From Paludibacteraceae bacterium (GTDB taxonomy: Bacteria > Bacteroidota > Bacteroidia > Bacteroidales > Paludibacteraceae): a stretch of 64,000 nucleotides of DNA. The stretch spans positions 10,420 through 74,419 of the forward strand of contig JAFSTO010000032.1 in NCBI GenBank assembly GCA_017450435.1, given 5' to 3'. The notes under the pieces were generated by a model. It made no database searches. It was not told where the DNA came from and was given only the letters and a program-made list of their open reading frames with translations. A program made the position numbers and the translations under genes. Of this stretch, positions 18,027 through 44,229 are shown in pieces (within the stretch, counting starts at the first letter, position 1; every line of letters begins with the position of its first letter).

Positions 18027-18920
18027 TTAATTGAACGGCATACAGCGACACGGACCCGTGTTGCGTGACTTGTTCTTATGAGGGAATATGACCGACAGCC
18101 TGACGCCTATGCGCAGGCTGTTTGCTTTATTAGTGAGTCCGCCTAATGTGTGGTGTGCCTCAAGCGGAGTGAGCATATCCTCGTCGTTGAACGTGGCGGG
18201 ATAGCTGAAGGCGGAGGGCTGACTGCTGACAGCTGACAGCTGACCGCTGATGGCCGACAGCAACCCGTAGTCGGCAAACAGAGCAATGGCAAAGGCGGTA
18301 TTGCTTTGCATGCGGGCAAACAGATAGCCTATTTCGGCTGATAGTAGTACGTCGGTCCTTGTTCGCGGAATGCTTTTCCAGCGGCGAGGCGCAGACGAGA
18401 AGTACTGGTGTTCGGGCATAGAGGTGAACGGGTCAAGAAAATGCGGGTAGTCGCCGTAGGTGCTTACGTCGGCGCTTATGTCACCTGAGCTGTGAAGAGG
18501 CACTGACAAGGTGGCGCCTACCAGAAAATAAACGGGGTTGAACATTGCTCCTACTCTGAGAGGTACGCCAAGTCGATATGCCGTCAGACCGTCTCGTCTT
18601 CCGGTTATGTCATATACGAAAGTGAAGCGGTAGCCGTCTCTGTCAACCGACTCCGGCATCTCGTGATGAGCATCTGCCGTGCGGAAAACGGTGCGGCTTG
18701 CACTTAGTTCTACACCTGTTCCGATAAGAAAATGCCCTACTCGCAGGGTATAGCCGCCGGCAACGGCACCATCTATTCCCAAAGAGGTGCCTTGCTGTGT
18801 CAGAAGCGACGACTCCGCTACGGAGAGACCTATGCCGGGATAATGCCACACATCGGCACCGGCTGCTATTGCAGATGCCATAAGCAGCAGAATGATGCAG
18901 ATATGTTTGTTGTTCGTCAT
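18027..18920 (-). CDS. outer-membrane beta-barrel candidate (hypothetical), last gene of the giant-paralog operon
   Basis: Signal peptide MTNNKHICIILLLMASAIAAGA. Alternating hydrophobic beta-strand pattern rich in G/Y/F/R. No PorP/SprF N-terminal motif seen. Coding looks secure, but function is unknown. Confidence 0.5.
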   Translation of the reverse strand: MTNNKHICIILLLMASAIAAGADVWHYPGIGLSVAESSLLTQQGTSLGIDGAVAGGYTLRVGHFLIGTGVELSASRTVFRTADAHHEMPESVDRDGYRFTFVYDITGRRDGLTAYRLGVPLRVGAMFNPVYFLVGATLSVPLHSSGDISADVSTYGDYPHFLDPFTSMPEHQYFSSAPRRWKSIPRTRTDVLLSAEIGYLFARMQSNTAFAIALFADYGLLSAISGQLSAVSSQPSAFSYPATFNDEDMLTPLEAHHTLGGLTNKANSLRIGVRLSVIFPHKNKSRNTGPCRCMPFN

Positions 18921-18960
18921 TCCGTCATTACGTTATTCCGTTATTCCGTTATTCCGTCAC
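18921..18960 (-). repeat. five 8-nt periodic units (+ strand TCCGTCAT TACGTTAT TCCGTTAT TCCGTTAT TCCGTCAC) between the 966-aa gene stop and the beta-barrel start
   Basis: Read directly. The tract fills the whole 36-nt gap and runs into the TGA stop at 18957-18959. Confidence 0.65.
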
Positions 18961-21857
18961 TTAACTATAATTTTAACTCTTTGTCCGTCTTCTTGCTGCA
19001 TTATATAACAGCCTTTTTGGGGTGTTGTGGTGGGGATGCCGAGAATGGTCCAGTATGCGGCAGGTGCTTTGTCGTATTGCGGTTTTTGCGGGTAGAATGG
19101 GCAGGTTATGAATGTCTTGCCGTCAGCGGAGCGGGTCACCTCTGCCTGATAGTAGTCGCCTTCTTCAAACTCCGTTTGAGCAAGGTGTAGGTAACTGCCG
19201 TTTTCCCCGTTGAGCAGAATGCCGTTGCGATACCAACGGAAAGCGGTAAAGAGGAGGTGATAAGGTGTATAGTCCGGCGAATAGACGGCAAGGACGTTGT
19301 TCCATTTCTGTGCAAACACTTTTTCCGGTGCATACAGCATAGTCAGTGTAGCGGCCAAGGCGCAGCTGAGCGAGTGAACAGTGTCAATGAAGGTTATTTG
19401 GATGGGGTACTCGTCGGGCAGCGATGGTACAAGAGGAACAGCAATGCTCATCTCATCGCTCAACGACAGTATGCTGTCAAAGTCGGAATAGTTGATCTGG
19501 CAAAGATGTGCTTGCCCTTCATCCCGGACAAAATCCACGTGAAAGACATTATCGCCGTCGCAGGCTTCTATATTGTTGCTTAGAAGTCGGTATCGCAACG
19601 TCGGTTGCGGAATGACAGGAGTGCTGACGGTGAGAAAAAGCGTATCATAATAGACACACCCTAACGTTGAGATAAAAGTGTCAACAAGGGTTATCTCTCC
19701 TCCTGTGTCAGGCGCGATGACAATCATATCAAGGCTGTCACGGTGATGCCAATGTATGGTGTCGCCGCTTTCTGCCGCCAAACGCTCGCCCGCAATTGAA
19801 AGGTTTTCCACATATAACTGCAAGCGTAGTATCGAATCTGCCCCATACTCTGCTGTGTGGTAGTGACGAAAGTCGGTGTAGATGCCGCCTCGTAGGAAGA
19901 GATAGACAGAGTCCTCCCACTGATATGGGGTGCCGTAGCAGACGGTGTCTTTTTGTGTAATGTCGTAGGTCTGTTGGAAATGCACAACGAAATGGCACAC
20001 CGAGTCACAGCCTCTTACGCTCTGCAATGTGTCATACATTTCCACTGTTTCTGTGCCTTTGTATGTTATCCACCGGTTGCCGCATCGGACGCTATCGTTT
20101 AATGACAAGACGTGTGTCTCTTCGGTGAGTCGTGTGGGGTGGACGGTGAGTGTGAGAGTGTATATGGAGTCGGCACCAAGGTGGCTTTTATAGACCAAGG
20201 TGTCGTGATACACCCCTTCCGGCAAGTGTTTGTACCAGAGCGAGTCGTGCCATAGAGCGGAGTCGTTGTCGCAGAGGTTGAGTGTCTCGTCAAACATATA
20301 AGTAGGCGGTATCACCACTTCCACCCTGATAGGATAATCCTCCTGCGTTAGCGGACAGCCGTCGGTGCTGCTGCCGCTGACACGATAAATGCCGGCATCG
20401 GTGCTGTCAATGGCGATGTTATATACTGATGCCCCACTGTGTACCGTGCCGTCGGGAAAAGTCCAACTGACCCCCGTGAACGGAACGGAATCGAGCAGTG
20501 TGAGTCGGATAGTGTCGCCTGCCGTATAAACGGACTTGGACGACACGGGAACCATTGCTTGACTATTGTAGGCTGAGAAATAGCCGTAGGTAAAGGTGCC
20601 GCCGCCGTCGTCGATTATTGAGGCGTGAAAGGTGCCGGCAGAGTTGCTGATATGTGCTATTCCGTCGTTGGCGAACAGACCGCTTGCCACTTGTGCATAT
20701 ACCCAGTTAGGAGCGTCAGGAACAGCGGTAAAAGGAATAGTAACCTGCTGCCCGTTGATGCTGAAAGAGCCGGTGTTGGAAGGCGAGGTGAGAAGCATCA
20801 GAAGCTGGTTGTTGAAGCGTTTTTTTATCACCACCTCGCGCGAGCCGGTGCAGTTCAGGCGCGGCAGTACCGTACCGCCCAGCTCGCCGCCACGACCTGC
20901 CACCTGATAACAGACGAACTTATCGGAGCCGATGATATGGGTGATGGCTGTGGTTGGATTGATGACCACACTGCTTCCGCCGGCAAGCACCTGCTGTGCA
21001 CCACCATTGACGGAGTAACTGATCGGACGACTCGGAAAAGTGTAAAGAATGAGCTGGTCAATAAGCCCGGTGCGGTTAGCATCACTGATAGCTATATACT
21101 CGTCTCCAGCAAGTGTTTCCGGCACAATCTGTTCACCTATCAGGTCTTGTCCGGTGTCAGCGAGTGAGTCGTCGGTGGAGTTAACCACCACGGGTTTGTC
21201 TGCCGTGACGATGGTTCCGCCAAGGTGGTTAGCGGCGGATGCGTTGATAGCACGAACGGTGTATATCTGTCCGCGCTGCAGGGTGATGGTGATGGTGGTG
21301 GAAGTGGGGTTGGTGTAGGTGGTGACAGGGGTCTGTATATTCACCTGCGTGTTATCTTCGGTAGCCAGCACCTCTATTGAGGCACATGCCCCATGGGCGT
21401 TGCCGCGCTGGCGTTGTTGCGCTACGAGGAAGAGCGTGCCAAGGGCGTTCCTGCCTTTGAGAGTGTAAATCTCGCTGTTGTTATTGACCTGCGCATAATA
21501 GGCTGTTATATGCCGGTCGGAGACGATGTTGATGCCGTAGTTGCACAAGCCGCTTTGGACTGCCCGGTTGATACCACCGGATGCTACGGCTATATCAACG
21601 GATGTATGAGGTGGCAGAGTGAACTGCATTGGGGCGAAGTAGCGCGGGTCGTTCTGACGAGTAACGGCAGGCTGGGTGATGGTGACGCGGGTGGTGTCGG
21701 TGAAAGAGGTGATACACAACTTGCCGTAGCCGTCCTGCTGACTGTTATCGTGAGCATTCACAAGATATGGAACGGCAAACCAGAAGTCAGTATCTACCTG
21801 CGCAGAGACGAGAATGGGGCAGACCAGTAATATGAGAAGAAAACTGAACCGCCTCAT
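18957..21857 (-). CDS. giant secreted surface protein, paralog B (IgGFc-binding-like N-terminal domain, Ig-like unit, Cys-motif repeats, shared C-terminal module, T9SS type-A-like tail)
   Basis: SPI signal MRRFSFLLILLVCPILVSAQ. N-terminal blocks FWFAVPYL, ITAYYA, SIEVLATEDNT, LGGTIVTADKPVVVN and DLIGEQIVP are shared with the upstream gene. Tail YWTILGIPTTTPQKGCYIMQQEDGQRVKIIVK. Its ATG overlaps the upstream stop (ATGA). Coding is secure, but domain names are from memory. Confidence 0.6.
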   Translation of the reverse strand: MRRFSFLLILLVCPILVSAQVDTDFWFAVPYLVNAHDNSQQDGYGKLCITSFTDTTRVTITQPAVTRQNDPRYFAPMQFTLPPHTSVDIAVASGGINRAVQSGLCNYGINIVSDRHITAYYAQVNNNSEIYTLKGRNALGTLFLVAQQRQRGNAHGACASIEVLATEDNTQVNIQTPVTTYTNPTSTTITITLQRGQIYTVRAINASAANHLGGTIVTADKPVVVNSTDDSLADTGQDLIGEQIVPETLAGDEYIAISDANRTGLIDQLILYTFPSRPISYSVNGGAQQVLAGGSSVVINPTTAITHIIGSDKFVCYQVAGRGGELGGTVLPRLNCTGSREVVIKKRFNNQLLMLLTSPSNTGSFSINGQQVTIPFTAVPDAPNWVYAQVASGLFANDGIAHISNSAGTFHASIIDDGGGTFTYGYFSAYNSQAMVPVSSKSVYTAGDTIRLTLLDSVPFTGVSWTFPDGTVHSGASVYNIAIDSTDAGIYRVSGSSTDGCPLTQEDYPIRVEVVIPPTYMFDETLNLCDNDSALWHDSLWYKHLPEGVYHDTLVYKSHLGADSIYTLTLTVHPTRLTEETHVLSLNDSVRCGNRWITYKGTETVEMYDTLQSVRGCDSVCHFVVHFQQTYDITQKDTVCYGTPYQWEDSVYLFLRGGIYTDFRHYHTAEYGADSILRLQLYVENLSIAGERLAAESGDTIHWHHRDSLDMIVIAPDTGGEITLVDTFISTLGCVYYDTLFLTVSTPVIPQPTLRYRLLSNNIEACDGDNVFHVDFVRDEGQAHLCQINYSDFDSILSLSDEMSIAVPLVPSLPDEYPIQITFIDTVHSLSCALAATLTMLYAPEKVFAQKWNNVLAVYSPDYTPYHLLFTAFRWYRNGILLNGENGSYLHLAQTEFEEGDYYQAEVTRSADGKTFITCPFYPQKPQYDKAPAAYWTILGIPTTTPQKGCYIMQQEDGQRVKIIVK

Positions 21858-24800
21858 CGAATGATTTTTTCTGTTAATATACCACGCCGAAGAATATAGA
21901 TACCCGGTGAGGTCGGTTCAGATATTTGTATGCCTGACAGGTTATAGTATATCTGCTGTGTTCCTTGCTCTTGTATTGGCATAGGCTGTTGGGTGGTGCT
22001 TGGGTAGAAGGGACAAGTGAGTGACTGTCTGCCGTCGGCTTCGGTCAGCAGAGCCTGATAGTAATCGCCGGGACGGAACGTTTCCTGCTCATAGAGCCAC
22101 GAGCGCTCTTCCACATCCATCGGTTCGCCGTTGCGATACCAACGGAATGCAACGAAGTCGTAACCACCATTGTAGTCCTTGTTCATTACAAAGAGAATGT
22201 CATTCCAACGTTGTGCTATGACACCGGCGGGGTAGAGTACGCAGAAGTTCACTTGCTCTTCATGCGAGCCGCAGATATCGTGATTTGTTCTGATGGTAAG
22301 ACTATAGCAACCGGCTTTCGGCGCGTCAGGCAATGGCAGGATGATAGAACCGTCTTGCAGCGAAGAAATGACAGTGTCGGTAAAACCGGCAATTTTGGCT
22401 TCAGCGGAAAAAGTAACGACGAAGGCAGCCAACTCGCCTTCGGTAACGGTGATGGGGATGTCTATCGCTTTGCTGTCGCATAGTTCACCAAGGTCGTCAA
22501 GTGCCTGCCACGTAGCGCAGTCGGTGCACTCTATTGGTGTAAGCAGTTCGAAACTGACCTCGTAACTGATGTCACCGCAGATGGGGTCTGTGGTGCTGAC
22601 AGTGAGCGTATATCTGCCGGGCTCGGGTGAGGCGGTGACGGGTATCAGGAGGCTGTCTCCTATTAGCGTGAGTCCGCTGATAGAGACGAAACCTGCCGCT
22701 TCGGCTTCGGCGGAGAAACGTACGTCAAATGTCTGCACTTCGCCTGCAGTCACATCCACGGGGATAGATAGTGCGGTGAGGCTGCAGAACGAACCAAGGC
22801 TGCTGACGGTCTGCCACTCAGCGCAATCGGTACAAGCCTTGAGCGTGAGCAACTCGAAGCTGATATCGTAGCCCACCTCGCCGCAGATGCTGTCAGCTGT
22901 GAACAGCCGCAGACTATACTTGCCGGGCTCAGGCGAAACGTTAACCGGAATCCGGATGCTGTCTGCTGTAAGCGTGAGTCCGCTCATAGAGACGAAGCCT
23001 GCTGCTTCTGCCTCGGCGGAGAAGCGCACGCTAAAAGTATCAATCTCGCCGGATATGACACTCACCGGAACAACTATCTCCGTCAGGCTGCAGAACGAAC
23101 CAAGGTCGGTCACCGTTTCCCATACCGGACATTCTTTGCAAGCCTCTGCCACAACGGTGATATCTTCCGTCATTTGTATCACGGGGTAGAACGTCATTGA
23201 GCGAATGGCTATGTGTTGCGTGCTGTGGCAGGCAAGGGCTACAATGCGCAGTTCGGGTTCGGCTCCGGCGTTATAATCTTCGGGATACGGCATCACCGGC
23301 ACGGTGTAGTTGATGCTCAGTGTCAGTCCGCCGGTGCCGTTAGGCAGTGCTGTCAGCGGACTGATGCTGTCGCCTGCGATGAAGAGCAGTTTGGGTGCTA
23401 CGCTGTTGTTCTCTGATGCGAAGAGTGTGATGCGCCAGCGGTAGGTAGCGCCGGGGATGAGGTTATTCATCTGCCTGTTCCATAGCAGTACGCTGTCACC
23501 TTCCTGCACCGGCAGGTCGGTAGTGTCGGTCCATGTGACAAGTGAAGCGCCGCGACTGCCGTGCTCCGAGCTGTAAGTGACGGACGAAGAGGGGCTGACG
23601 GTGAGGGTGCGCTCCGTGGAGTCGGCAAGGAGCACGCCGTCGGCGTACCAGCGGAATGGCTTGGTGCCAACGGCTTGCAGAGTGATGGTGTCACCGGTGC
23701 ATATACGTCGCTTAGAACGGTCGCTCGTCTCGAACACGCTGACGTAGATAGAGTCCGGCAGTACGTCGCAACCCTCCTTATGAACGGCACTGACAGTGTA
23801 CATACCGCCGTCGACTGACGTGAGTGGGGCTATGAAAGGCGCAGGGTCGTCAAAACCAAAGTCGCCATGAGGACCATGCCATACGATATTCTCATACCCG
23901 TCGCCGCCGGTCAGACTAAGACGGAGAGTGTCACCAACGTAGTAGATGTTCTCGCCGGAGTGGGCAAACAAGGATATGTGTCCGAAGTTGGAGAAGAAGC
24001 CGTATGAGCATGCGCCGCCGCCGTTATCGAGTATGCCGAGGTGAAAGACACCTTTGTTGTTGGTTATGTTGAACGACTGGTAGTTATACGCAAGTGTGAG
24101 GTTGGCGCATGAGCAGTATGACCAAGTGCTGTCGCCTGCCACCGGACGAAACGAAGCGGCGGGCAGTTCGTAAGGCGAATCGTTGACAATAAAACCGTCG
24201 ATGTTCTCAGTACGCGTCAGTATAGTCACCTTAGCCTCTCTTTCCGACAGTGCCGGTACGTAGTTCACCTCCTGCGAGCCGGAGCAGTTGAGCGACGGGA
24301 GGATGGTGCCGCTCAGCTCGTTGCCGCCCTCGTTGGCTGTGAGGTGGAAAAGGATGAACGGAGAATTGTCGTCTGAGTAGAAGAGTGTGGCAACGATGTT
24401 GTTCAGTGGCACCTCGCGCGGGGCACCGGGAGCAATGTTCACAGAGGTGACGTTCACCCCGTCGGTGGTGTAGTTGACGGTGGTGGCTGAGTCAATGGCG
24501 TAGAGGTAAGCGTACTCGTGGTTGTTGCTGTTGTTGGCGGGCAGTATGTATCTGCTGCCAGCAAGGTCCACGGGAACTAACTGTTCGCCAATGAGGTCCT
24601 TGTCATTTCCCGTTGTGGCAGAGTCGTCAGACGTGTTGACGGCTACTGGTTTGTCGGCAGTGACAATAGTGCCGCCAAGGTGCTCGTTAGCGGGAGTGTT
24701 GGCTGTGCGTGAACGCAAGGCATAGCTCTCACCGCGGTTTAGGGTGACGGTGACGGTGCCGGGAGTGGCGTTAACGTTGGTAGCTACCGGACAGTCGATA

Positions 24801-25309
24801 GTAACGGTAGTGTTGTCCTCTGTTGCAACCACCTCTATCGAAGCGTATGCTCCGTCGGTGTGGTTGCAGGCGTGACGCCACTGCTGGGGTACAACGAAAT
24901 GTGTGCCTAACCCGTGGGCACCCTTGAGGGCATAAACCTCAGAGTTAGGTGCAGTGGTGGCATAGTAGGCGGTGATATCGGCATCGGAGGTGATGAGAAT
25001 GCCGGTGTTGTGGACTTGTCCGTCGGCGCGGGTCTCAATGTTCTGCTTATAATTGTTCTGATTGCGAAGCGAGAAGGTGAAGGTGCTGTGCGCATTGACG
25101 CGCCGGGCGGCAAGCAGTGTTCTTCCCGCTGCCGGCTGCGTGATACTGACTGTGGCGGCTTCGTCGTAGGCTACTATAACGAGGTTGATGTTGTCAGGAG
25201 TGTGGCTCGTTGTGAGGTAAGGTGCGGCGAACCAAAAACTGCGGTCAACCTGCGCATGAGTAACCACCGCTACAAGCATAAACAGTAATATATGGAAGAC
25301 TCTTTTCAT
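21854..25309 (-). CDS. giant secreted surface protein, paralog A (IgGFc-binding-like N-terminal domain, Ig-like units, 3 tandem ~102-aa repeats, shared C-terminal module, T9SS type-A-like tail)
   Basis: SPI signal MKRVFHILLFMLVAVVTHAQ. Blocks FWFAAPYL, ITAYYA, SIEVVATEDNT, LGGTIVTADKPVAVN, DLIGEQLVP. Tail IYYNLSGIQISEPTSPGIYILRRGILTEKIIR. Confidence 0.6.
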   Translation of the reverse strand: MKRVFHILLFMLVAVVTHAQVDRSFWFAAPYLTTSHTPDNINLVIVAYDEAATVSITQPAAGRTLLAARRVNAHSTFTFSLRNQNNYKQNIETRADGQVHNTGILITSDADITAYYATTAPNSEVYALKGAHGLGTHFVVPQQWRHACNHTDGAYASIEVVATEDNTTVTIDCPVATNVNATPGTVTVTLNRGESYALRSRTANTPANEHLGGTIVTADKPVAVNTSDDSATTGNDKDLIGEQLVPVDLAGSRYILPANNSNNHEYAYLYAIDSATTVNYTTDGVNVTSVNIAPGAPREVPLNNIVATLFYSDDNSPFILFHLTANEGGNELSGTILPSLNCSGSQEVNYVPALSEREAKVTILTRTENIDGFIVNDSPYELPAASFRPVAGDSTWSYCSCANLTLAYNYQSFNITNNKGVFHLGILDNGGGACSYGFFSNFGHISLFAHSGENIYYVGDTLRLSLTGGDGYENIVWHGPHGDFGFDDPAPFIAPLTSVDGGMYTVSAVHKEGCDVLPDSIYVSVFETSDRSKRRICTGDTITLQAVGTKPFRWYADGVLLADSTERTLTVSPSSSVTYSSEHGSRGASLVTWTDTTDLPVQEGDSVLLWNRQMNNLIPGATYRWRITLFASENNSVAPKLLFIAGDSISPLTALPNGTGGLTLSINYTVPVMPYPEDYNAGAEPELRIVALACHSTQHIAIRSMTFYPVIQMTEDITVVAEACKECPVWETVTDLGSFCSLTEIVVPVSVISGEIDTFSVRFSAEAEAAGFVSMSGLTLTADSIRIPVNVSPEPGKYSLRLFTADSICGEVGYDISFELLTLKACTDCAEWQTVSSLGSFCSLTALSIPVDVTAGEVQTFDVRFSAEAEAAGFVSISGLTLIGDSLLIPVTASPEPGRYTLTVSTTDPICGDISYEVSFELLTPIECTDCATWQALDDLGELCDSKAIDIPITVTEGELAAFVVTFSAEAKIAGFTDTVISSLQDGSIILPLPDAPKAGCYSLTIRTNHDICGSHEEQVNFCVLYPAGVIAQRWNDILFVMNKDYNGGYDFVAFRWYRNGEPMDVEERSWLYEQETFRPGDYYQALLTEADGRQSLTCPFYPSTTQQPMPIQEQGTQQIYYNLSGIQISEPTSPGIYILRRGILTEKIIR
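22229..23143 (-). repeat. three tandem in-frame coding repeats (periods 309 and 306 nt) inside the 1151-aa gene
   Basis: aa 723-825, 826-927 and 928-1027 each read C-x2-C...W...LG.(F)C...IP(V/I).V..GE...F.V.FSAEA..AGF...PEPG.Y(S/T)L...D.ICG...F.(L)L. Copies 1 and 2 are also visibly similar at DNA level. The antisense ORFs 22569-22871 and 22887-23189 mirror each other. Confidence 0.85.
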
Positions 25310-25316
25310 GAATTAT

Positions 25317-25376
25317 GTTCATTGTCACTTAGTACTTAGTCACTTGGTACTTAGTCACTTGGTTACTTGGTCACTT
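25317..25376 (-). repeat. eight 7-8-nt periodic units (+ strand GTTCATT GTCACTT AGTACTT AGTCACTT GGTACTT AGTCACTT GGTTACTT GGTCACTT) in the leader of the 1151-aa gene
   Basis: Read directly. The tract spans the entire 61-nt gap and overlaps the stop and last codon of the 751-aa gene. Confidence 0.7.
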
Positions 25377-30068: not shown

Positions 30069-30325
30069 GGGGGAGATATTTTTTAGTGGTTTATGTTCGT
30101 ATAATAGTAATTATAGTGCACCACTACCTGCTCCTGTGCCGGTGCCACCCGGGGTGAACTCATCTCCACCATCGTTGTTATCTGTTCCGGTACTGACGTT
30201 GAGCATGACGGACGGTGATAAGTAGCGGAAGATATCAGTTTGTGGAATGGTGTATATTCGTTTTGCAGTCATTGTGTTATTCTTTATAGTTATTAGACGT
30301 TGAGTTTGTTTTATGGCTACAGACC

Positions 30326-34120: not shown

Positions 34121-34172
34121 AAAAAAGAAAATTCCTTTCCGCAGCCGGCGGCAGGTGCCGGCTGCGGAAAGG
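34121..34172 (-). terminator. strong intrinsic terminator after the 845-aa gene
   Basis: On the - strand a 16-bp stem CCTTTCCGCAGCCGGC / GCCGGCTGCGGAAAGG (34134-34149 and 34157-34172) with a 7-nt loop is followed by AATTTTCTTTTTT. Confidence 0.8.
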
Positions 34173-36788: not shown

Positions 36789-38096
36789 TTAGTTCAGCTT
36801 GAAGTAACTGAGGTTGATTGCTCCGTTTATTACATGAAAACGGATATAGTGTTTACCGGAGACGGGGAAATCGTCCACAGTGAAAGTCGTCCACGTGTTC
36901 ATTGAACCGGTCTTTGGCAGTGAAACCATCTTGACGGGGTCACCGTCCACGTAGATAGCGAGTTGGGTATCAATCAGAGTTGCATATCGCAAGGAGATAT
37001 TGTTTTTTGGTGATGTGGCATCGATCTGATATTCGACCCAGCGGTCCATTGCGAGGTTGTACAGCATCAGTTTGCCGCCTTCTGCATCGGTACTGTTGGT
37101 AACAGCCGGAAAGATGTTGAAGTCGGTGTACCACTGTGCCGGTATGGGGTTGGTGGCGTCAATGCATACCGACTTGTCAAGCGACGACATGCCGGCATAT
37201 ATCTCTCCAAGGGGCGTCAACTCAATAGGGTCTTGTTTGGTGAGCAGTTGGTTGTAGGGTTTGGAGTTAAGCGAGTTGTTGCTGCGGGGGATGAACCAGG
37301 CATAACGCTCCACCAGTTCTTCCTGTTCGAAGTAATTTATCACATCGCTCATATAACTCTTCTGTACATCCACTCCGCTGATGTCCCATGCGCAGAACTC
37401 CGTCATCCATATTGGTTTGTCGTACTTGCGGAACTTCTCGACAAAGCCTTTCACCGCCGAGCAACTGGTCATATAGCAGTGTATGGGAATGAAGTCGATG
37501 TCGTCGATGCTGATACCGGGCTGGCGGAAGAACTCGTCAAGCCATTTGACGGGGTCGGAGTAACCGGCGAGTGTGCCGTAGTTCATGGCAGGAGCTCCGA
37601 GTTTGAGGTTCAGTTCCTTGGCGAGTGCCACCACATCCGGCCACAACTCCGCCGCTTTCTGCGGAGTCATGTTAGCTTGGTCGGTGAGGTTAGGCTCGTT
37701 GAACCCTAACAGATAACCTGTGTTAGGGTGCCCCTGTACGAAGGCGCGGATGCGGTCCTTGCTATAGTTGCCGTTCCAGCACATGGGGCAGTAGTCGATG
37801 TTGTTCTGCTCCAAGAAAAGCTGCACGTTGTCAGGACCGGACGGCGTGTTACCCCAGTTGTAGTGCCAGCAGATGAAGTTGGAGAGGATAAAAGCGTCAG
37901 TCACGTTTTTTATACCGAACGACACTCCCCGCTTGTGGCTTCCTGGCATAGAGGCAACAGTCGTAGTGCCGGCAAGTGATTCGGCTTCCGGCTTATTGAC
38001 TGTCGGTCCCGTGGGCTGCTGCACCGGTTCGGTGCAGCCCCACAGGAGTGAAAGCAGAGTGATAACTGACAGTGTGAAATACTTACCGGTATTCAT
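36789..38096 (-). CDS. GH128-type (Glyco_hydro_cc, PF11790-like) glycoside hydrolase lipoprotein with a C-terminal CBM-like beta-sandwich
   Basis: Lipobox LLWGC. Family blocks HKRGVSF, WHYNWG, CPMCWN, LLGFNEPNLTDQANMTP, WLDEFF, IPIHCY, KPIWMTEFCAW, VERYAWF. The C-terminal ~120 aa resemble CBM6/35 (weak call). Confidence 0.8.
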   Translation of the reverse strand: MNTGKYFTLSVITLLSLLWGCTEPVQQPTGPTVNKPEAESLAGTTTVASMPGSHKRGVSFGIKNVTDAFILSNFICWHYNWGNTPSGPDNVQLFLEQNNIDYCPMCWNGNYSKDRIRAFVQGHPNTGYLLGFNEPNLTDQANMTPQKAAELWPDVVALAKELNLKLGAPAMNYGTLAGYSDPVKWLDEFFRQPGISIDDIDFIPIHCYMTSCSAVKGFVEKFRKYDKPIWMTEFCAWDISGVDVQKSYMSDVINYFEQEELVERYAWFIPRSNNSLNSKPYNQLLTKQDPIELTPLGEIYAGMSSLDKSVCIDATNPIPAQWYTDFNIFPAVTNSTDAEGGKLMLYNLAMDRWVEYQIDATSPKNNISLRYATLIDTQLAIYVDGDPVKMVSLPKTGSMNTWTTFTVDDFPVSGKHYIRFHVINGAINLSYFKLN

Positions 38097-38158
38097 AGTG
38101 TCGGGGTTTACGGTTAGACAGAGTTAACAGTCCTATACGGAATAGATTATTCAGATGT

Positions 38159-39181
38159 TTATTCAACTTCGTAGATATAGAACGCGTCGAGGTTGAGGAT
38201 ATTGCCCGTCTGGCCGGTAGAGCCGATGGTGAGAATGTTCAAACCTTTTCCTCCTGCGTGATTTACGTACGCCTCAAGTGAAGCGGCATAGCGGTCGAAA
38301 GCGAAGTCGATAACGTTCCACGAACCGTCATATACTATATCGAACTTGCCATTTGACTCTGCTTCGTAGTAGTCGCCTACACACCATTTGAGTCCGGTGC
38401 CGTTTGTTCCGAGTCCGAAGAGCGAGAAGTAGTGGCTGGACCCCTGTTGTGTGGACTTGATGGCCATGTGGCAGTGGTACTTGGCGGGGTTAGCTTTGAT
38501 TTCGGCAACGAGTGCGTCAGCAGCGGCTTTCGACTCTTCATCGGCATCAGAGATGGAGTAACCCATTCCCGACCATCCTTTGTCGGTAACGATAGCGGAG
38601 AGGAAACCGCCGTCGGACTCGGTCTGGAAGAAGTTGCTGCCGGAAGCTGCATTGCCCCCATAGGTCTGCTCCCAGAACCAGAGGTTGCGGGTAGTGCCGT
38701 TAGGCGCGAAGCTGAAGACGATTTTCGAAGCGTTAGCATCGGCTGTCTCGCCGTCCATGATGATGGTCCAGATACGTTTGCCGTGTACCACAGGTTTCTC
38801 ACCCGGAGTAACAGCGCCTTCTTGAACGACATTGATGATGCAACTCTTGTTGACGGTGCCGGCGGTGACGGTAACGATAGTGTTACCTGCTGCAACACCC
38901 GTTACAAGTCCGCTTGCATTGACAGAGGCAACGCTCGGGTCAAGAGAGGAGTAGGTAAGGGCTGTGCCGGCAGGAGTGACGTTGGCAACAATCTGCACGG
39001 TTGCACCCACCTTAACGGAATACTGAGTAGCGCCAAGCTCCAAGCTGACGGTTTCTGTCGGGGTGTTAGGATTGGAATTGTTGTTTCCTTGTTGGTTGGG
39101 GTCATCAGGGTTGTTGTTACCTTTGCAACCAAACCATGCAAGTGCTACACATGCCATGGCAAGAATCTTAAAGTTTTTCAT
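38159..39181 (-). CDS. surface lipoprotein with a Big_2 Ig-like domain in the SusE/F position (candidate surface glycan-binding protein)
   Basis: Lipobox AWFGC followed by an N/P/Q-rich linker. Big_2-like VSLELGATQYSVKVGATVQIVANVTPAG...YSSLDPSVASVNASGLVTGVAAGNTIVTVTA. Positioned directly after susD. Confidence 0.6.
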   Translation of the reverse strand: MKNFKILAMACVALAWFGCKGNNNPDDPNQQGNNNSNPNTPTETVSLELGATQYSVKVGATVQIVANVTPAGTALTYSSLDPSVASVNASGLVTGVAAGNTIVTVTAGTVNKSCIINVVQEGAVTPGEKPVVHGKRIWTIIMDGETADANASKIVFSFAPNGTTRNLWFWEQTYGGNAASGSNFFQTESDGGFLSAIVTDKGWSGMGYSISDADEESKAAADALVAEIKANPAKYHCHMAIKSTQQGSSHYFSLFGLGTNGTGLKWCVGDYYEAESNGKFDIVYDGSWNVIDFAFDRYAASLEAYVNHAGGKGLNILTIGSTGQTGNILNLDAFYIYEVE

Positions 39182-39243
39182 AGTGGCTGTAGTTTTATAG
39201 TTGAACTGTTATTAGTCAATCATCATTAATAAATAATCAATCA

Positions 39244-40899
39244 TCAATTATATCCCGGGTTTTGTGTTAGTGCGGGATTGAGCTCTATCTCTTTCTGCGG
39301 AATGGGGAATAGCTCATGTTTGCCTTCCACGAAAGTGGCGAGGTGCGAGCGGGCGGCGTCTGACTCAGTGGCTTGATATGCTTCCATGTGTGCTTTGGTG
39401 CCTCCCCAGCGCACGAGGTCGAACCAGCGGTGTCCCTCCATTGCCAGCTCCATACGGCGCTCATGGCGCAGCAGTTGCTCGGTGGTAGGACTGCTGATTG
39501 TCACGCCGTTGACGCTGATGGGGTTTGTGCCGGCGGCGGGCATGCCAACGCGCGTGCGAACCATATCTATATATTGTTTGGCAGTGGCCTCGTCACCAAG
39601 ATACAGACAAGCCTCAGCGTACATTAGCAGGTTGTCGGCGTAGCGCATATATGCTCTGTTGAGCGGACCGCGTGAGGCGTGGTAGCCCCAAGGGCCGATG
39701 CCGGCTTTGCTGTCTGATGTCTCGCGATACATGCCGTACTTGTTATTAAGCATCGCTGTGCCGCAGTAGGTCTCCTCCAGCACGTTATCCATCATTGCAG
39801 GATCGGGCGTAAAAATCGCCACATCGCGCCGCGGGTCGCCTGACTCGAACTCGTTGTAGAGGTTCCATGTGGGGTGGGAGAAACCCCAGCCACCGCCAAT
39901 CTGTGTGGAGCGTGAGCGCATCAGTATCTGTGAGAACGAGCCGGCTGTATAGCCGTTATGACCGCCGTTGGCATCGCCGTAATCGCCCCAAGGTACCTCC
40001 ATATACTGAAGTTCGAACACTGACTCTTGGTTGTTCTCGCCTGCAAGGGAGAAGTTGAACTCATAGTCGCTGACAAGGTTGTATTCGCCGGACAGAATGA
40101 TGCTGTCGCCCCATGCCTTGCTTTGGCGATACAGCTCCTGGCGGTCGAGAGACGTAAGGTGTTTGTCGTGCCAGTAAGGTGACGCCATATAAAGGTAAAC
40201 CTTCTGCAGCATGCCTTGTGCCGCGCCTTTGGTGGCCCTGCCGGCATCTTTAGTGTCGTATTCCGACTTGAGCCAGAGCCGCTCCTGAGCATATTTGAGG
40301 TCGCTGATAATCTGATTGCAAACCTCCTCAACGCTGTTGCGTGGCAGCTCCCAACGCTCGGCATCGTTCTCCACCTGCAGCGTCAGAGGCACTCCGCCAA
40401 AGATGCGAAGCAAATGGAAATAATAATACGCGCGCATGAAGTGTATCTCTCCAAGGTAGCGCTGCTTGGTGCGCTCGTCCATGGTGCTGTCCGTCGTCAT
40501 CGGCTCAATGTACTTGAGCGCGAGATTACAGCGGGCTATTCCCTGATATGGGGTTTTATAGTGGTCGAAGATATAACTGTTGGACGGCTCAGTCTGCCAA
40601 TTTTCCATATCATAAACCTGCTCCATATCCATTGTGTTCTGGCCGCCTTTGAGGGCATCATCGCTGACCACGTCACCGATAAACCACTCAGGGAAATAGG
40701 TGGTGTTGTATTCCCAAATCATCGGAGTGTAGCAGCCGGTGACACACTGCTCGGCGGCACCGCCGCTGACGAAGAAATCTTCCAACAGCACCGTACCGGG
40801 GGCATTCTCCGTTAAGTAATCCTTGCAGGAGAAAAGGGTAAGTGGCAATGCGACTAAGTATAAACTGACAAGTGCGCTGATATGTGTGTTGCTTTTCAT
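39244..40899 (-). CDS. SusD/RagB family nutrient-binding outer-membrane lipoprotein
   Basis: Lipobox LTLFSC. SusD-like blocks RAYYYFHLLRIFGGVPL and RRMELAMEGHRWFDLVRWG. Located directly downstream of susC. Confidence 0.92.
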   Translation of the reverse strand: MKSNTHISALVSLYLVALPLTLFSCKDYLTENAPGTVLLEDFFVSGGAAEQCVTGCYTPMIWEYNTTYFPEWFIGDVVSDDALKGGQNTMDMEQVYDMENWQTEPSNSYIFDHYKTPYQGIARCNLALKYIEPMTTDSTMDERTKQRYLGEIHFMRAYYYFHLLRIFGGVPLTLQVENDAERWELPRNSVEEVCNQIISDLKYAQERLWLKSEYDTKDAGRATKGAAQGMLQKVYLYMASPYWHDKHLTSLDRQELYRQSKAWGDSIILSGEYNLVSDYEFNFSLAGENNQESVFELQYMEVPWGDYGDANGGHNGYTAGSFSQILMRSRSTQIGGGWGFSHPTWNLYNEFESGDPRRDVAIFTPDPAMMDNVLEETYCGTAMLNNKYGMYRETSDSKAGIGPWGYHASRGPLNRAYMRYADNLLMYAEACLYLGDEATAKQYIDMVRTRVGMPAAGTNPISVNGVTISSPTTEQLLRHERRMELAMEGHRWFDLVRWGGTKAHMEAYQATESDAARSHLATFVEGKHELFPIPQKEIELNPALTQNPGYN

Positions 40900-40965
40900 A
40901 GCTGTGGGGTGATTAAGTGATGTGTGTTTTTCGATGATTCGATATTTTGAGTTTTCGGAATTACG

Positions 40966-40989
40966 GAATTACGTAATTCGTTATTAACA
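40966..40989 (-). repeat. three 8-nt periodic units (+ strand CGGAATTA CGGAATTA CGTAATTC) between susC and susD
   Basis: Read directly. The tract is related to the unit at 18921-18960 (CGGAATAA on the opposite strand). Confidence 0.6.
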
Positions 40990-40990
40990 A

Positions 40991-43900
40991 TTAAAAATTG
41001 GCGTTCAGTCCGAATGTGAATGTGCGGCTCTGCGGGTAGTTGCCGTAGTCTGTTCCTCCGCCCACCTCCGGGTCGTAGCCTGAGTAGAGTGTGGCGGTGA
41101 AGAGGTTAGCAGCTGTCATGTAAACACGCAAGCGCTGCAGGTGTGCTTTTTGCATCCATTGCTTTGGGAAGGTGTAACCTATTTGCAGGTTCTTCAGGCG
41201 GAAGTAACTGCCGCTCTCAACAAACCGTGATGAACTGTAGCTGTTGGAAGGACTGCCTACAGGGTTAGGAATAGTTCCGTTGCGGTTCTCAAGATTGAGG
41301 TCCATATAGTTGATGCCGCGTGCCAACATGGCATTGAGCATCAGGTCGTTGTAGCCAACCCATACGTCAGACATCGTGGGCGATAGGGAGCAGTCGTTGC
41401 CCGCACCCTCTGTGCGGTAACGCAAAGCGTTGTAAATCTGATTGCCATATACGCCTTGGAAGAACAGCTGAATATCCACGCCGTAGAACTCTGCACCGAG
41501 ATTGATACCATAGGTGAATTTAGGGAACGGGTTGCCTATATATGTCTTGTCGTCATCGTTGATAATGCCGTTGTTGTCTATATCGCGATACTTGGCGTCT
41601 CCGGCGTGTACGCCTATCTGGTCGGGTTTGTCGGCATAGTACCACTGATGAGCCAGTACCTCTGCATCCGATTGGTAAATACCTTCATACTCAAATCCCC
41701 AGAAAGAGCCGAGAGGCATACCTTCGTCGGTCTTTGTGTAGCCGCTGTAGAGTGGCGAACCGCCGTTGACCTTCAGCAGGCGGTTGCGAATGAAACTCAT
41801 GTTGCCGCCGATAGTATAGCTGACGTGACCCACTTTGCGGGCATGCTCAAGGGTGAACTCAACGCCGTCGTTGCGAATGTTGCCTACGTTCTTCACCAGC
41901 GAATAACGGTTGCCCACGTGTGACGGTGCGTTGACGTAAAGCAGGGCGTCCAAGGTGGTACGGCGGAAGATGTCGATGGTGCCGCTCAGGTTGCCGTTCC
42001 AGAAGTTGAAGTCTATACCGAGGTCCCATTGTTCGTTAGTCTCCCACTTGCCGTCGATATTTGCCTGTGTCAGCACTGCTGCGCCATACGCCATCTCCTG
42101 TGCATCGTTGGGCATGCCGAGCGGGTAGCCGTAAAAGACGCTGTTCGATGAACCGATGGTGACCAGGAAGGTGCTGTTGCTCAGATTGGCATCATTGCCT
42201 ACACGTCCCCAACCGAGACGCAGCTTCAGGTTGTCAAGCCACTCTTGGTCTCTGAGCCACGGCTCCTGACTCAGACGCCATGCAAGTGAGGCTGACGGGA
42301 AGAAACCCCATGGGTTCTTCTGGAAGACTGACGAGGCATCGGCGCGAAAGTTGATGGTAGCCATATAGCGGTCATCGTATGAGTAGAAGAACCGTGCCAG
42401 CGCAGACATACGACGTGTGCGGCTTACCGAGTCGCTACTCTCAGTGCGGTTCTCCGTCGTCTTGTTCAGATAACGGTTGGTCTCAACAGGGTTGAGAATA
42501 TTTGCACCCGAACCACTGATGCTATAGTAGTTGTACTCTGACCACGTCTGACCTATCATGGCGGAGAAGTTATGCGCGCCAATCTTGTCGGCATAAGTGA
42601 TGGTTGTCTCTTCCAACAAGCTGTATGAGCGGCTTAGAGAAGCAGAGAGGTAGTTGAGCGTAGCGCGGTCATACACTGAGTAGTCGTAGGCGTTCTTATA
42701 ATTACGCGTGTGACCCATGTTCAAATCCATTGATATAGACGGGCGGATACTCAGTTGCTTGATAGGCTTGATGTCAATGTATATATCGCCCAGCAGACGC
42801 ATTGGTTTGCTGCTTGGGAACGACTCGCTGACCATCGATATCGGGTTAGTAACGTTCTTGAAATTGCTGGACGCTGCGTTCTTGCCGCTGATGTCCTCGC
42901 CGTTGATATTAACGGAGCCTTCGGGATAGACAGTCGGATCCCATGGCGCCATGGCAAGAGCTGCAGAAAGGATACTGGCTCCCGGACTGGAACTGTTGTT
43001 CATTGCGCGGCGGGACGATGATGTAACGAAACTCAGATGCTCGCCTATCGTCAGCCATTTGCGCACGTTCCAATCGGCGTTGATACGCAGACTCAGACGT
43101 TTATAGTTTGAGCCGATGATTGTGCCATTCTGCTCAAAGTAGTTGGCAGACAGTGCATAATGGCCTTTGTCGCTGCCGCCGTCAACGCCGAGGTTATAGT
43201 TGTGCATAAAGGCGTTGGAGTTGAATACCTCGTCCTGCCAGTCGGTGTTCTGGTTGGCGTAGTCGAAGTTGGTGGGGAAATACGGCGAACTGCCTGTCAG
43301 CGTTGCTATATATGCGCCCAGGCCTTTATCATTATATATTTTATACGCGTCAATAGCGTCCACTCCGTCTTTCATTATAGCAATGCGCAGTTTGGTATCA
43401 ACCATCTCGTTGGCTCCCATCAGCGGCAGCTTCTTCCATCGGTTCTGTATGCCCCAATAGGCATCGAACGATATGTTGGCTTTGCCTTGTGAGCCGGACT
43501 TGGTGGTTATGATAATGACGCCGTTGGCTCCTCTGCTGCCATATATGGCAGCAGAGGATGCGTCTTTCAGTATCTGCATTGATTCGATGTCCGAAGCAGA
43601 GAGGAATGATATATCGGAAGTGATGACGCCGTCCACCACGTAGAGCGGGTCGTTGCCGGCTATGGCACTGCCTATACCACGGATACGTATAGTGGCGTTG
43701 TCGCCGGGCTGACCGCTACCGTTGGTAACCGTTACGCCGGCAGCGCGACCTTGCAGAGCCGTGGTTATATTGGCGGCAGGCGTCTTCGTCAGTTCGTCGG
43801 CACTGACGGAAGCAATAGCACCCGTCAAATCCTGCTTGCGCATCTTGCCATAACCAACGGCTACTACCTCTTCCAGCATTTCGCTATCCGAGTGAAGAGT

Positions 43901-44170
43901 GACACGTAGCGGCTGACTCCCATTGACGCGCACTTCCTCGGTCTTATAGCCAACGTATGAGAACAAGATGATGTCACCCTTCTTGGCAGAAAGGCTGAAA
44001 CGACCGTCAATGTCAGTAATGGTGCCGAGTGTGGTGCCCTTCACAACAACGTTTGCCCCAACAGCAGGCTCGCTTGAGTCATCGGTTAGTACTACACCGT
44101 TTACCTCAAGGGTCTGGGCACTGAGCGACAATGCAAAGATGGCTGCTAAAACGGATAGAATGTGTTTCAT
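40991..44170 (-). CDS. SusC/RagA family TonB-dependent outer-membrane transporter
   Basis: Signal MKHILSVLAAIFALSLSAQ. Carboxypeptidase-regulatory-like VNGVVLTDDSSEPAVGANVVVKGTTLGTITDIDGRFSL. Plug QGRAAGVTVT...IRIRGIGS. C-terminal FTFGLNANF. The start is moved from the TTG at 44194 to the ATG at 44170 because 44192-44199 is a promoter box. Confidence 0.92.
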   Translation of the reverse strand: MKHILSVLAAIFALSLSAQTLEVNGVVLTDDSSEPAVGANVVVKGTTLGTITDIDGRFSLSAKKGDIILFSYVGYKTEEVRVNGSQPLRVTLHSDSEMLEEVVAVGYGKMRKQDLTGAIASVSADELTKTPAANITTALQGRAAGVTVTNGSGQPGDNATIRIRGIGSAIAGNDPLYVVDGVITSDISFLSASDIESMQILKDASSAAIYGSRGANGVIIITTKSGSQGKANISFDAYWGIQNRWKKLPLMGANEMVDTKLRIAIMKDGVDAIDAYKIYNDKGLGAYIATLTGSSPYFPTNFDYANQNTDWQDEVFNSNAFMHNYNLGVDGGSDKGHYALSANYFEQNGTIIGSNYKRLSLRINADWNVRKWLTIGEHLSFVTSSSRRAMNNSSSPGASILSAALAMAPWDPTVYPEGSVNINGEDISGKNAASSNFKNVTNPISMVSESFPSSKPMRLLGDIYIDIKPIKQLSIRPSISMDLNMGHTRNYKNAYDYSVYDRATLNYLSASLSRSYSLLEETTITYADKIGAHNFSAMIGQTWSEYNYYSISGSGANILNPVETNRYLNKTTENRTESSDSVSRTRRMSALARFFYSYDDRYMATINFRADASSVFQKNPWGFFPSASLAWRLSQEPWLRDQEWLDNLKLRLGWGRVGNDANLSNSTFLVTIGSSNSVFYGYPLGMPNDAQEMAYGAAVLTQANIDGKWETNEQWDLGIDFNFWNGNLSGTIDIFRRTTLDALLYVNAPSHVGNRYSLVKNVGNIRNDGVEFTLEHARKVGHVSYTIGGNMSFIRNRLLKVNGGSPLYSGYTKTDEGMPLGSFWGFEYEGIYQSDAEVLAHQWYYADKPDQIGVHAGDAKYRDIDNNGIINDDDKTYIGNPFPKFTYGINLGAEFYGVDIQLFFQGVYGNQIYNALRYRTEGAGNDCSLSPTMSDVWVGYNDLMLNAMLARGINYMDLNLENRNGTIPNPVGSPSNSYSSSRFVESGSYFRLKNLQIGYTFPKQWMQKAHLQRLRVYMTAANLFTATLYSGYDPEVGGGTDYGNYPQSRTFTFGLNANF

Positions 44171-44191
44171 GGTAGCGGTATAATGTTTGTA

Positions 44192-44222
44192 CAAAATTAC
44201 AATTTAAAAACTTTTGCCGCAA
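44192..44222 (-). promoter_or_regulatory. Bacteroidetes-type promoter of the susC-led operon
   Basis: On the - strand, CTTGCGG (TTG = complement of 44220-44222), 20 nt spacer, TAATTTTG (complement of 44192-44199), 21 nt before the ATG at 44170. Confidence 0.6.
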
Positions 44223-44229
44223 GTCTCGC

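Follow-up and report, generated by a model that had tools for sequence, protein, structure and literature searches.

A predicted beta-1,3-glucan utilisation locus adjoins a conserved cassette of FCGBP_N proteins with putative type IX secretion tails in an uncultured rumen Paludibacteraceae bacterium

Polysaccharide utilisation loci (PULs) are usually pictured as lipoprotein-based machines, and enzymes secreted through a type IX secretion system (T9SS) as a separate strategy. The laminarin-type PULs of Bacteroidota combine glycoside hydrolases (GH) of families GH16, GH3 and GH128 with surface glycan-binding lipoproteins, and chitin utilisation by Flavobacterium johnsoniae uses ChiA, which is secreted by the T9SS. 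In pairs of the SprB/SprF type, T9SS cargo of type B is encoded beside an outer-membrane partner that resembles PorP/SprF, and in some cases an OmpA-family gene accompanies them. Here we describe a locus in a 64-kb stretch of DNA (referred to hereafter as the window; contig JAFSTO010000032.1, positions 10,420 to 74,419) from the metagenome-assembled genome (MAG) of an uncultured rumen bacterium of the Paludibacteraceae, in which a Sus-like PUL lies next to a conserved cassette that encodes an A/B repeat protein, two FCGBP_N proteins and an outer-membrane beta-barrel.

The nearest published concept is that of the rumen bacterium 'Candidatus Paraporphyromonas polyenzymogenes', whose T9SS-linked cargo consists of enzymes, namely multi-modular cellulases (PMC5831590). 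T9SS cargo of Prevotella intermedia carries 'short CTDs' (C-terminal domains) of 40-55 aa, in which motif B is joined by a motif D (G-x-Y then I) and a basic motif E, together with a PT/GI cleavage consensus (Ye et al. 2025, PMC11969387). These are cleaved and glycosylated as long CTDs are, and were predicted to fold as a minimal beta-sheet and not as a 7-strand sandwich (PMC11969387). In bacteria FCGBP_N has been described only at the N-terminus of proteins that gliding Bacteroidota secrete, with no function assigned (PMC4948705); neither a pairing of FCGBP_N proteins nor a link to glycan utilisation was described by Lang et al. 2016 (PMC4948705).

On balance, we favour reading the locus as a beta-1,3-glucan PUL to which a non-catalytic surface assembly is coupled; exported by the T9SS and possessing its own barrel anchor, this assembly would capture substrate or mediate attachment. 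The analysis establishes gene content, protein families, folds, conservation and recurrent co-location, whereas T9SS export, surface retention and a binding role are inferred. Part 1 of the locus (44170-34182) would be a Sus-like PUL for a beta-1,3-glucan-type substrate with a divergent SusR-like regulator, in which one Bacteroidetes promoter would drive the genes for SusC, SusD, a Big_2 lipoprotein, a GH128 endo-glucanase with a CBM6/35 module and an 845-aa repeat protein, the unit ending at a terminator. Part 2 (33997-18027) would supply accessory surface proteins: a discoidin/fn3 protein, the product of a micro-ORF (ORF, open reading frame), a GH2 lipoprotein and the conserved cassette. The five large non-lipoproteins would reach the periplasm through Sec by means of their signal peptidase I (SPI) signal peptides and, once outside, would be retained on the surface either by attachment through the T9SS sortase pathway or by the barrel(s) that the cassette encodes. 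In this position they would form a non-catalytic binding or adhesion layer, keeping beta-glucan-rich material (soluble, or particles of fungal, yeast or plant wall) near GH128, the Big_2 lipoprotein, which resembles a surface glycan-binding protein (SGBP), and SusC/D.

The array spans 18027-44194, all on the minus strand, and corresponds to proteins MBQ9339334-345 in the public record. Positions throughout are those of the window and come from an ORF listing with translations, which reproduced exactly the ORF coordinates of a first-pass annotation of this DNA and the gaps that it reported (91, 62, 62, 69, 184, 257, 63 and 61 nt, a 4-nt overlap and 36 nt). The susC ORF, however, starts at the ATG at 44170 and not at the TTG at 44194. 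The 11 large genes of that annotation stand, but it did not list an ORF of 53 aa that occupies 30111-30272, inside the 257-nt gap; since this ORF is publicly annotated (MBQ9339339.1), we count the array as 12 genes.

The head of the array had been called a canonical PUL, and searches against Pfam bear this out. The SusC-like TonB-dependent transporter (1059 aa from its ATG, 40991-44170, minus strand) matched Plug, CarbopepD_reg_2 and TonB_dep_Rec and is named 'TonB-dependent receptor' by PGAP. Adjacent to it on the same strand, across the 91-nt gap, lies the gene for a SusD-like lipoprotein of 551 aa (39244-40899, minus strand; SusD_RagB, 146 bits; SusD-like_3, 98 bits; lipobox LFSC). The linked carbohydrate-active enzymes (CAZymes) are a GH128 protein with a CBM35/6 module and a GH2 protein, and a divergent DUF6377/SusR-family regulator completes the features by which Sus-like PULs are recognised. 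This SusR-like regulator (520 aa, 44398-45960, plus strand) matched DUF6377 in Pfam (199 bits) and the NCBIfam SusR family glycan utilization regulator (E 1.4e-97, 328 bits, under the 480-bit equivalog cut-off). A direct repeat of ~27 nt with the sequence cgtactttttt(t)gctccacgc(a/g)catac occurs twice on the minus strand at 44229-44321, its copies ~67 nt apart between the regulator gene and the susC promoter, and is a candidate operator.

The next two genes encode lipoproteins. A 340-aa protein (38159-39181, minus strand; Big_2, 51 bits; lipobox WFGC, then KGNNNPDD) is a candidate surface glycan-binding protein, and its homolog in a related locus, L015 (E 5e-39), leads a GH16/GH128 cluster. 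The GH128 (Glyco_hydro_cc) lipoprotein of 435 aa (36789-38096, minus strand; lipobox LWGC) matched PF11790 over profile positions 17-237 of 237 (185 bits, E 2.3e-54, cut-off 21 bits), and its C-terminal module matched CBM_35_2 (45 bits) and CBM_6 (32 bits). From its family and from the GH16 and GH3 neighbours in related loci, the GH128 enzyme is probably specific for beta-1,3-glucan. The same glycan had been hinted at earlier from GH128, and that hint is strengthened by the FCGBP_N pairs found among GH16, GH128 and GH3 genes in more distant MAGs and contigs.

Transcription signals set the PUL unit apart. A Bacteroidetes-type -7 promoter box, TAATTTTG, is present at 44192-44199 on the minus strand, 21 nt before the susC ATG (44170), and among all upstream gaps of the array a perfect TAnnTTTG occurs only in the susC upstream region. 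The single strong intrinsic terminator noted previously was confirmed (34121-34172, minus strand): its hairpin, 34172-34134, has a 16-bp stem, 12 of whose pairs are G-C, is followed by a T-rich tail and lies 10 nt past the stop of the 845-aa gene. A simple hairpin scan found no other terminator-like site of such strength on the minus strand between 17500 and 46500. Together, the lone promoter box and this terminator suggest one transcription unit running from susC to the 845-aa gene. The 845-aa gene (34182-36719, minus strand) lies 69 nt past the GH128 gene and ahead of the terminator, and is therefore most likely on the same transcript as the PUL head.

The product of this last gene links the PUL unit to the cassette. 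It is a secreted repeat protein of the form A-B-A-B-A-B-A with a short type-2 tail (see below) and is 33% identical to the cassette head proteins of loci L001, L002 and L004 (BLAST), that is, a paralog of the cassette head. The cassette head of the window itself is a 751-aa protein of the form (A-B)x3 plus a type-2 tail (25371-27626, minus strand), and we take it for the ortholog of the first cassette gene of L001 and L004 because it is 41-42% identical to them (BLAST). Neither repeat protein matched Pfam or NCBIfam, a PDB sequence search with the 845-aa protein was likewise empty, and about 20 word-index relatives were found among 5.8 billion proteins. In both, a ~120-aa unit bounded by two cysteines (module A; residues 27-150, 249-365, 462-585 and 682-798 of the 845-aa protein) alternates with a ~98-aa, FnIII-like unit (module B). 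An AlphaFold2 model of the A-B unit, from 23 aligned units, consisted of two beta-sandwiches (pLDDT, the predicted local distance difference test, 91), and module A appears to be a new ~120-aa beta-sandwich module. Foldseek matched this model to generic tandem FnIII/Ig ectodomains and adhesin stalks at template modelling (TM) scores <= 0.42. The matches being generic, no assignment to a carbohydrate-binding module (CBM) family was possible, and a search of PDB sequences with the A-B profile gave only a marginal match to an intimin Ig domain. Because the model is built of beta-sandwiches and its structural matches are FnIII/Ig domains and adhesin stalks, the A/B proteins would be rod-like, non-catalytic and of the surface type; a carbohydrate-binding role of module A is possible.

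The two central genes of the cassette encode FCGBP_N proteins. PF17517 (IgGFc_binding) spans residues 132-406 of the 1151-aa protein (21854-25309, minus strand; 112 bits) and 137-412 of the 966-aa protein (18957-21857, minus strand; 92 bits), both well over the cut-off of 25.6 bits. The start of the 966-aa gene overlaps the 1151-aa gene upstream of it by 4 nt. The two proteins are paralogous and fall into distinct orthogroups by BLAST: the 1151-aa protein (orthogroup 1), which also has an Ig-like domain, is 37-50% identical to the first-position FCGBP_N proteins of L001, L002 and L004, and the 966-aa protein (orthogroup 2) is 43-53% identical to those in the second position. Both end in a short type-1 tail. 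PDB sequence searches with the 1151-aa protein and with the FCGBP_N profile found nothing. Residues ~700-1010 of the 1151-aa protein comprise three ~95-aa internal repeats (C-x-x-C-x-x-W-x-x-V...SFELLT), too diverged to be detected as tandem repeats in the DNA. FCGBP_N proteins also have an invariant Cys in the sequence T-C-P-F/Y-x-P right before their tails.

The last cassette gene (18027-18920, minus strand) encodes a 297-aa protein, earlier listed as a beta-barrel candidate, which proved to be an outer-membrane beta-barrel. It has a signal peptide, its AlphaFold2 model (pLDDT 73) is an all-beta antiparallel meander with long strands, and Foldseek matched it to the solved outer-membrane proteins NspA, OmpA, Ail and Pla at probability 1.0, with TM scores of only 0.25-0.31. 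By BLAST it matches the last cassette gene of relatives, while a search of PDB sequences with it found nothing. A profile search assembled a family of 1547 cluster representatives, and 16 of the 64 members scanned matched OMP_b-brl_2 and 6 matched OMP_b-brl; the window protein itself lies under the Pfam thresholds, its place in the OMP_b-brl_2 superfamily being given by its relatives. Identity with PorP/SprF was rejected, since the protein did not match PorP_SprF or TIGR03519 and none of the 64 relatives did so at E<=0.1. From these family matches and contexts, we regard it as a barrel that travels with large surface proteins and is not a recognisable PorP/SprF; in L008 a relative follows a protein of >3600 aa. 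Most relatives encode an additional barrel that is fused to OmpA. The N-terminal barrel of these OmpA-fused proteins belongs to the same family as the small barrel, and identity with PorE was rejected, as only the OmpA domain matched (88 bits against a 600-bit cut-off). Small barrels end in P-C-x-C (PCRC, PCHC, PCMC, PCVC) past the last strand, both in the window (18027-18060) and in L001, L002, L004, L005, L007, L009-L012 and L016. Disulfide or metal chemistry through this motif or the invariant Cys of the FCGBP_N proteins is possible. Within the barrel gene, at 18204-18261, an imperfect heptanucleotide repeat (GCTGACA x6.3, also with period 21) encodes a Ser/Gln/Ala-rich loop (residues ~221-239); the model is poor in this loop, and close homologs partly lack it.

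The cassette is conserved well beyond the window. Scanning one genome per GTDB species with an FCGBP_N alignment yielded 76 loci, almost all from uncultured Bacteroidales of the rumen or herbivore gut, and a metagenome scan with an alignment of FCGBP_N orthogroup 2 added further cassettes. About 10 of the 76 loci hold the full cassette (table of ORFs and hidden Markov model matches); the rest have a solitary FCGBP_N gene of ~900 aa in unrelated contexts. The gene order is A/B protein, FCGBP_N-1, FCGBP_N-2, OmpA-fused barrel (~460 aa) and small barrel (~260-300 aa), and it was found in L001, L002, L004, L005, L007, L009-L014, L016, L087-L091, L097 and L101. The OmpA-barrel gene is absent from the cassette in the window and in L004, L005, L007 and L016. 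A different FCGBP_N pair system may be represented by the metagenome loci L141-L165, where two FCGBP_N proteins of ~1130-1180 aa are split by a 293- or 576-aa gene, with a ~640-aa gene ahead, no A/B protein and no barrel match.

Genes for glycan use recur around the cassette. In L015, from a more divergent Bacteroidota MAG whose FCGBP_N protein is 40% identical to that of the window, the order is Big_2 lipoprotein, Big_2-GH16, GH128+CBM35/6, a 734-aa pectate-lyase-like protein, two FCGBP_N genes, OmpA-barrel, GH3 and ROK kinase, and the FCGBP_N pair is therefore inside a beta-1,3-glucan PUL. L004 reads GH16, MFS transporter, a 1112-aa protein, GH3, a discoidin protein, A/B protein, two FCGBP_N genes and barrel. 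GH16 is near an FCGBP_N pair and OmpA in L093 and L094, and L123 has FCGBP_N, barrel and GH128. In L010 the cassette is upstream of a SusC 62% identical to that of the window and then an orthologous SusD, and in L087 a SusC gene lies downstream of the cassette. The window order GH2, A/B protein, two FCGBP_N genes and barrel is retained, with orthologous GH2 genes, in L005, L007, L009 and L089, and L009 and L089 additionally retain a gene like that of the 1223-aa protein ahead of GH2. This recurrence of the cassette by glucan genes in varied gene orders argues for functional coupling. The first-pass annotation had held that its idea of a glycan-related array would fail if the downstream genes were transcriptionally independent of the susC operon and non-syntenic with it in relatives; synteny with glycan-utilisation genes was found. 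In L005 (10897-12998) adh_short and uxuA come immediately after the cassette, whereas in the window these genes lie beyond the other side of the PUL (47596-49637). It therefore seems that one of the lineages has undergone an insertion of the PUL or a rearrangement of its position relative to the cassette.

By inspection, the five large non-lipoproteins carry an N-terminal Sec signal without a lipobox (LTAYA/DAS in the 845-aa, SLYA/DTT in the 1223-aa, VLHS/QDS in the 751-aa, VTHA/QVD in the 1151-aa and LVSA/QVD in the 966-aa protein, the slash marking the predicted cleavage site), with Gln at +1 in three of the five. Their C-terminal tails are of two types. Type 1 (the FCGBP_N proteins of 1151 and 966 aa, ending in YYNLSGIQISEPTSPGIYILRRGILTEKIIR and YWTILGIPTTTPQKGCYIMQQEDGQRVKIIVK, respectively) reads Y-N/T-x-x-G-x-x-V, a short spacer, G-x-Y-I and then K-I-I-x, and, judged by eye against the published description, has motifs B, D and E one after the other (PMC11969387). 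Type 2 (the 845-, 751- and 1223-aa proteins) starts with G/A/S-I/L/V-D/E, followed by a spacer of ~10 aa and K-x-I-x-N-G-Q-L-Y-I-x-R-x-G-x-x-Y-N-x-x-G-Q-x-V. In the 751-aa protein (WGTPTGINEVEG...KKIFINGQLYILVNEKVYNVLGQQVK) the type-2 tail is preceded by PTGI, which agrees with the PT/GI cleavage consensus.

Orthologs exchange type-1, type-2 and canonical tails: P0040 carries PF18962, the tails of L015 look canonical, and solitary FCGBP_N relatives have classic type B CTDs (CHU_C, TIGR04131). Elsewhere in the window the type-2 tail is found on a 919-aa CE8 pectinesterase (1120-3879, plus strand; ..KMIENGQVYILKDGVRYTTLGVEVKK) and on a 743-aa protein without a family match (58089-60320, plus strand; ..KFVRNGQVIIRRGNKEYNTLGAEL), and it therefore appears to be a general sorting tag. 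In all, seven proteins of the window have short sorting tails that the standard T9SS models miss. Among 48 tails scanned, 4 matched PF18962 (Pfam) and 5 matched TIGR04183 (NCBIfam), 2 positive controls included. Since the standard models miss most of the cargo in these genomes, predictions of the rumen Bacteroidales secretome are probably too low. A profile of the type-2 tail run against the set of 5.8 billion proteins returned only short unnamed fragments and was uninformative. Taken by analogy and by the positional equivalence of the tails, T9SS export of the five proteins is well supported, though not proven. The first-pass description of them as T9SS-tailed giants thus stands for their SPI signals and, on other evidence, for sorting tails of the T9SS kind, but not in the sense that standard models recognise any of the five, and 'giant' is generous for proteins of 751-1223 aa.

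Several observations weigh against a beta-1,3-glucan PUL coupled to an exported surface assembly. A single operon across the array was not adopted, because the strong terminator and a 1223-aa gene of foreign base composition (below) speak against it. PF18962 and TIGR04183 missed all five tails, whether the proteins were searched whole or as isolated tails (E<=10). The motif order of type 2 differs from that of type 1; hhalign aligned only the terminal Y-N-x-x-G-Q-x-V of type 2 to motif B of type 1 (probability 81%), which suggests a permuted order. No T9SS core gene was present in the window or within 10 kb past either end, and no cassette module matched any characterised carbohydrate-binding family. 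The cassettes of L001, L002, L011 and L012 have no detectable glycan genes in their visible flanks, and the cassette is for this reason considered a separable module. Finally, the GH and Sus queries that matched at cassettes found only 1 of ~120 solitary FCGBP_N loci (phmmer), which favours coupling, but this enrichment comparison is biased towards cassettes, as the single-sequence queries were drawn from their neighbourhoods.

Cassettes standing alone, as in L001, L002 (by YfhO and glycosyltransferases), L011 and L012, would suit a self-contained operon of the surface-adhesin or motility type that has no glycan role and is adjacent to the PUL through shared outer-membrane neighbourhoods or by chance. 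So would the terminator that parts the cassette from the PUL head and the earlier, only loose association of FCGBP_N proteins with gliding bacteria, together with CHU_C and SprB domains (PMC4948705). We nevertheless consider such an operon unlikely. Adjacency to GH16, GH128, GH3, GH2 or SusC genes was seen in ~10 distinct cassette lineages with varied gene orders and is almost absent around solitary FCGBP_N genes; in L015 the pair is inserted between GH128 and GH3, and in the window a paralog of the cassette head (845 aa) is located inside the PUL unit, before the terminator. A different objection concerns catalysis: FCGBP_N proteins, and possibly module A, would be enzymes that act on the glycan but have escaped recognition, and the locus would be more degradative than CAZyme annotation implies. 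The domain has no assigned function or solved structure, many of its acidic or polar positions are invariant in both orthogroups (for example N-x-x-D-D-S...D-L-x-G-x-Q-x-V), and in L015 the pair stands between glycoside hydrolases and adjoins the pectate-lyase-like protein. In Pfam, NCBIfam and PDB sequences, however, no catalytic family resembles the FCGBP_N proteins, the remainder of each consists of Ig-like and repeat modules typical of adhesins, and the domain also heads non-enzymatic animal mucus proteins (PMC4948705), so that an enzymatic role seems improbable to us.

The tails might also have a fate other than the T9SS, such as docking on the cassette barrel or periplasmic retention, an idea to which the failure of PF18962 and TIGR04183, the lack of T9SS genes in the window and its 10-kb flanks and the presence of the cassette's own barrel(s) all lend themselves. 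Type-2 tails are moreover ~37 aa long, shorter than the 40-55 aa of the reported short CTDs, and differ in motif order. We find this the hardest of the alternatives to credit, given that same-position orthologs end in canonical tails of type A and relatives in CTDs of type B, that type-1 tails agree with motifs B, D and E as published, that a cleavage consensus is present, and that the type-2 tail occurs on unrelated proteins including a pectinesterase, as expected for a general secretion tag. A coupled beta-1,3-glucan PUL and surface assembly thus remains the reading that we prefer. In a bolder form, which we put forward only tentatively, the A/B proteins, the FCGBP_N pair and the barrel(s) would build an undescribed T9SS-dependent structure that seizes particles or cells containing beta-1,3-glucan and feeds them to the Sus-like PUL, the type-2 tail being a permuted minimal signal. 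If so, its users would be rumen Paludibacteraceae and some other Bacteroidota, with fungal or yeast walls as examples of the target, and FCGBP_N, a domain to which no function is assigned even in the human mucus protein FCGBP, would for the first time have a defined role, that of binding glycans or surfaces.

Our reading agrees with the main idea of the first-pass annotation and refines it: the target glycan is now firmer, and the supposed uniform 'train' of genes resolves into a PUL unit that runs to the terminator, a foreign 1223-aa gene, a GH2 gene and a separately conserved, separable cassette. The proposal that the locus serves capture or adhesion and not degradation is overstated; the head is a normal degradative PUL.

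Between the PUL unit and the cassette lie the 1223-aa gene, the micro-ORF and the GH2 gene. The secreted 1223-aa protein (30326-33997, minus strand; two F5_F8_type_C domains and fn3 in Pfam) is composed of an unassigned N-terminus, B, A (399-516), an unannotated stretch, F5/8C, fn3, F5/8C, an unassigned C-terminal domain and a type-2 tail. Its gene has a GC content of 43.5% and a third-position GC (GC3) of 0.41, compared to 0.57-0.67 in all neighbours, and the first ~700 codons are lowest (34-42% GC). The difference in GC3 therefore suggests a separate origin, by recent acquisition or recombination. Similar proteins are encoded at the same position in L009, L010, L067 and L089. No evidence was found to support the galactose-type ligands that had been hinted at from the discoidin domains.

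The 53-aa micro-ORF (MTAKRIYTIPQT..., 30111-30272, minus strand) follows between the 1223-aa gene and GH2 and has no family match. Counterparts of 43-54 aa with the motif K-x-Y-x-x-P-Q-T begin at 4496 in L009, 4501 in L010 and 2416 in L067; the N-terminal motif is conserved, the tail is Gly/Thr/Asn-rich and non-conserved, and the position is constant, directly past the 1223-like gene and ahead of the GH2 or A/B gene. The 792-aa lipoprotein encoded next (27690-30068, minus strand) had been described as a GH2-malectin protein, in agreement with matches over the cut-off to Glyco_hydro_2_N (PF02837), Glyco_hydro_2 (PF00703) and Glyco_hydro_2_C (PF02836) and a weak match of the C-terminal module to Malectin. 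Its best NCBIfam match, beta-glucuronidase LacZ4, scored 339 bits, far under the 950-bit cut-off, and no equivalog was reached. Spacers of the array hold short tandem repeats: CGTCATTC x5.6 between the 966- and 297-aa genes (18915-18959), and GTCACTTG-type x7 between the 751- and 1151-aa genes (25324-25377). A duplication of agaatact ahead of the 1223-aa gene resembles these octamer-type repeats, which might affect translation or phase variation.

Compared with the systems introduced above, the PUL unit is closest to laminarin-type PULs, with which it shares adjacent SusC and SusD, a surface Big_2 lipoprotein, a GH128+CBM lipoprotein, a divergent SusR-like regulator and a single Bacteroidetes promoter. 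It differs in having one clear endo-glucanase and no GH16 or GH3 in the window, and the locus runs on into genes for five secreted non-lipoproteins whose tails are of the T9SS type and for a dedicated barrel, features missing from classical Bacteroides PULs. The combination of SusC/D-type uptake with large multi-modular proteins bearing T9SS signals is shared with the ChiA and polyenzymogenes systems, as is the rumen habitat with the latter, but their cargo consists of enzymes, whereas that of the window is non-catalytic by current models and part of a conserved cassette with barrel(s). The tails resemble P. intermedia's short CTDs in length (~35-45 aa), in motifs B (Y..G), D (G-x-Y-I) and E (basic, close to the end) and in a PT/GI-like site (a small residue, then I/L/V) upstream (PMC11969387); the comparison was made by description only, and three of the five, those of type 2, differ in ending in a motif-B-like element.

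Like SprB/SprF-type pairs, the locus has large repetitive surface proteins followed by a barrel gene of ~300 aa, with an OmpA-domain protein in most relatives, but the barrel is of the general OMP_b-brl_2 kind and not PorP/SprF, and the cargo tails are short and type A-like and not type B CTDs. In agreement with bacterial FCGBP_N proteins in general (PF17517; PMC4948705), the domain comes right after the signal peptide of secreted Bacteroidota proteins with Ig-like repeats and T9SS signals; here, in contrast, it occurs as a fixed pair of two orthogroups in a multi-gene cassette tied to beta-glucan loci. This gives a concrete beta-1,3-glucan context to a domain common to bacteria and animal mucus proteins, and what FCGBP_N and minimal T9SS signals do becomes testable in a defined glycan setting. 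The analysis also defines a new beta-sandwich module of ~120 aa and a large family of small outer-membrane barrels that lacks annotation (~1500 clusters at 50% identity). Beside the lipoprotein-based PUL and the T9SS-secreted enzyme, the locus and its relatives suggest a third arrangement, widespread in uncultured Bacteroidales of the rumen and herbivore gut, in which a normal PUL is joined by conserved, non-catalytic T9SS cargo with its own membrane anchor.

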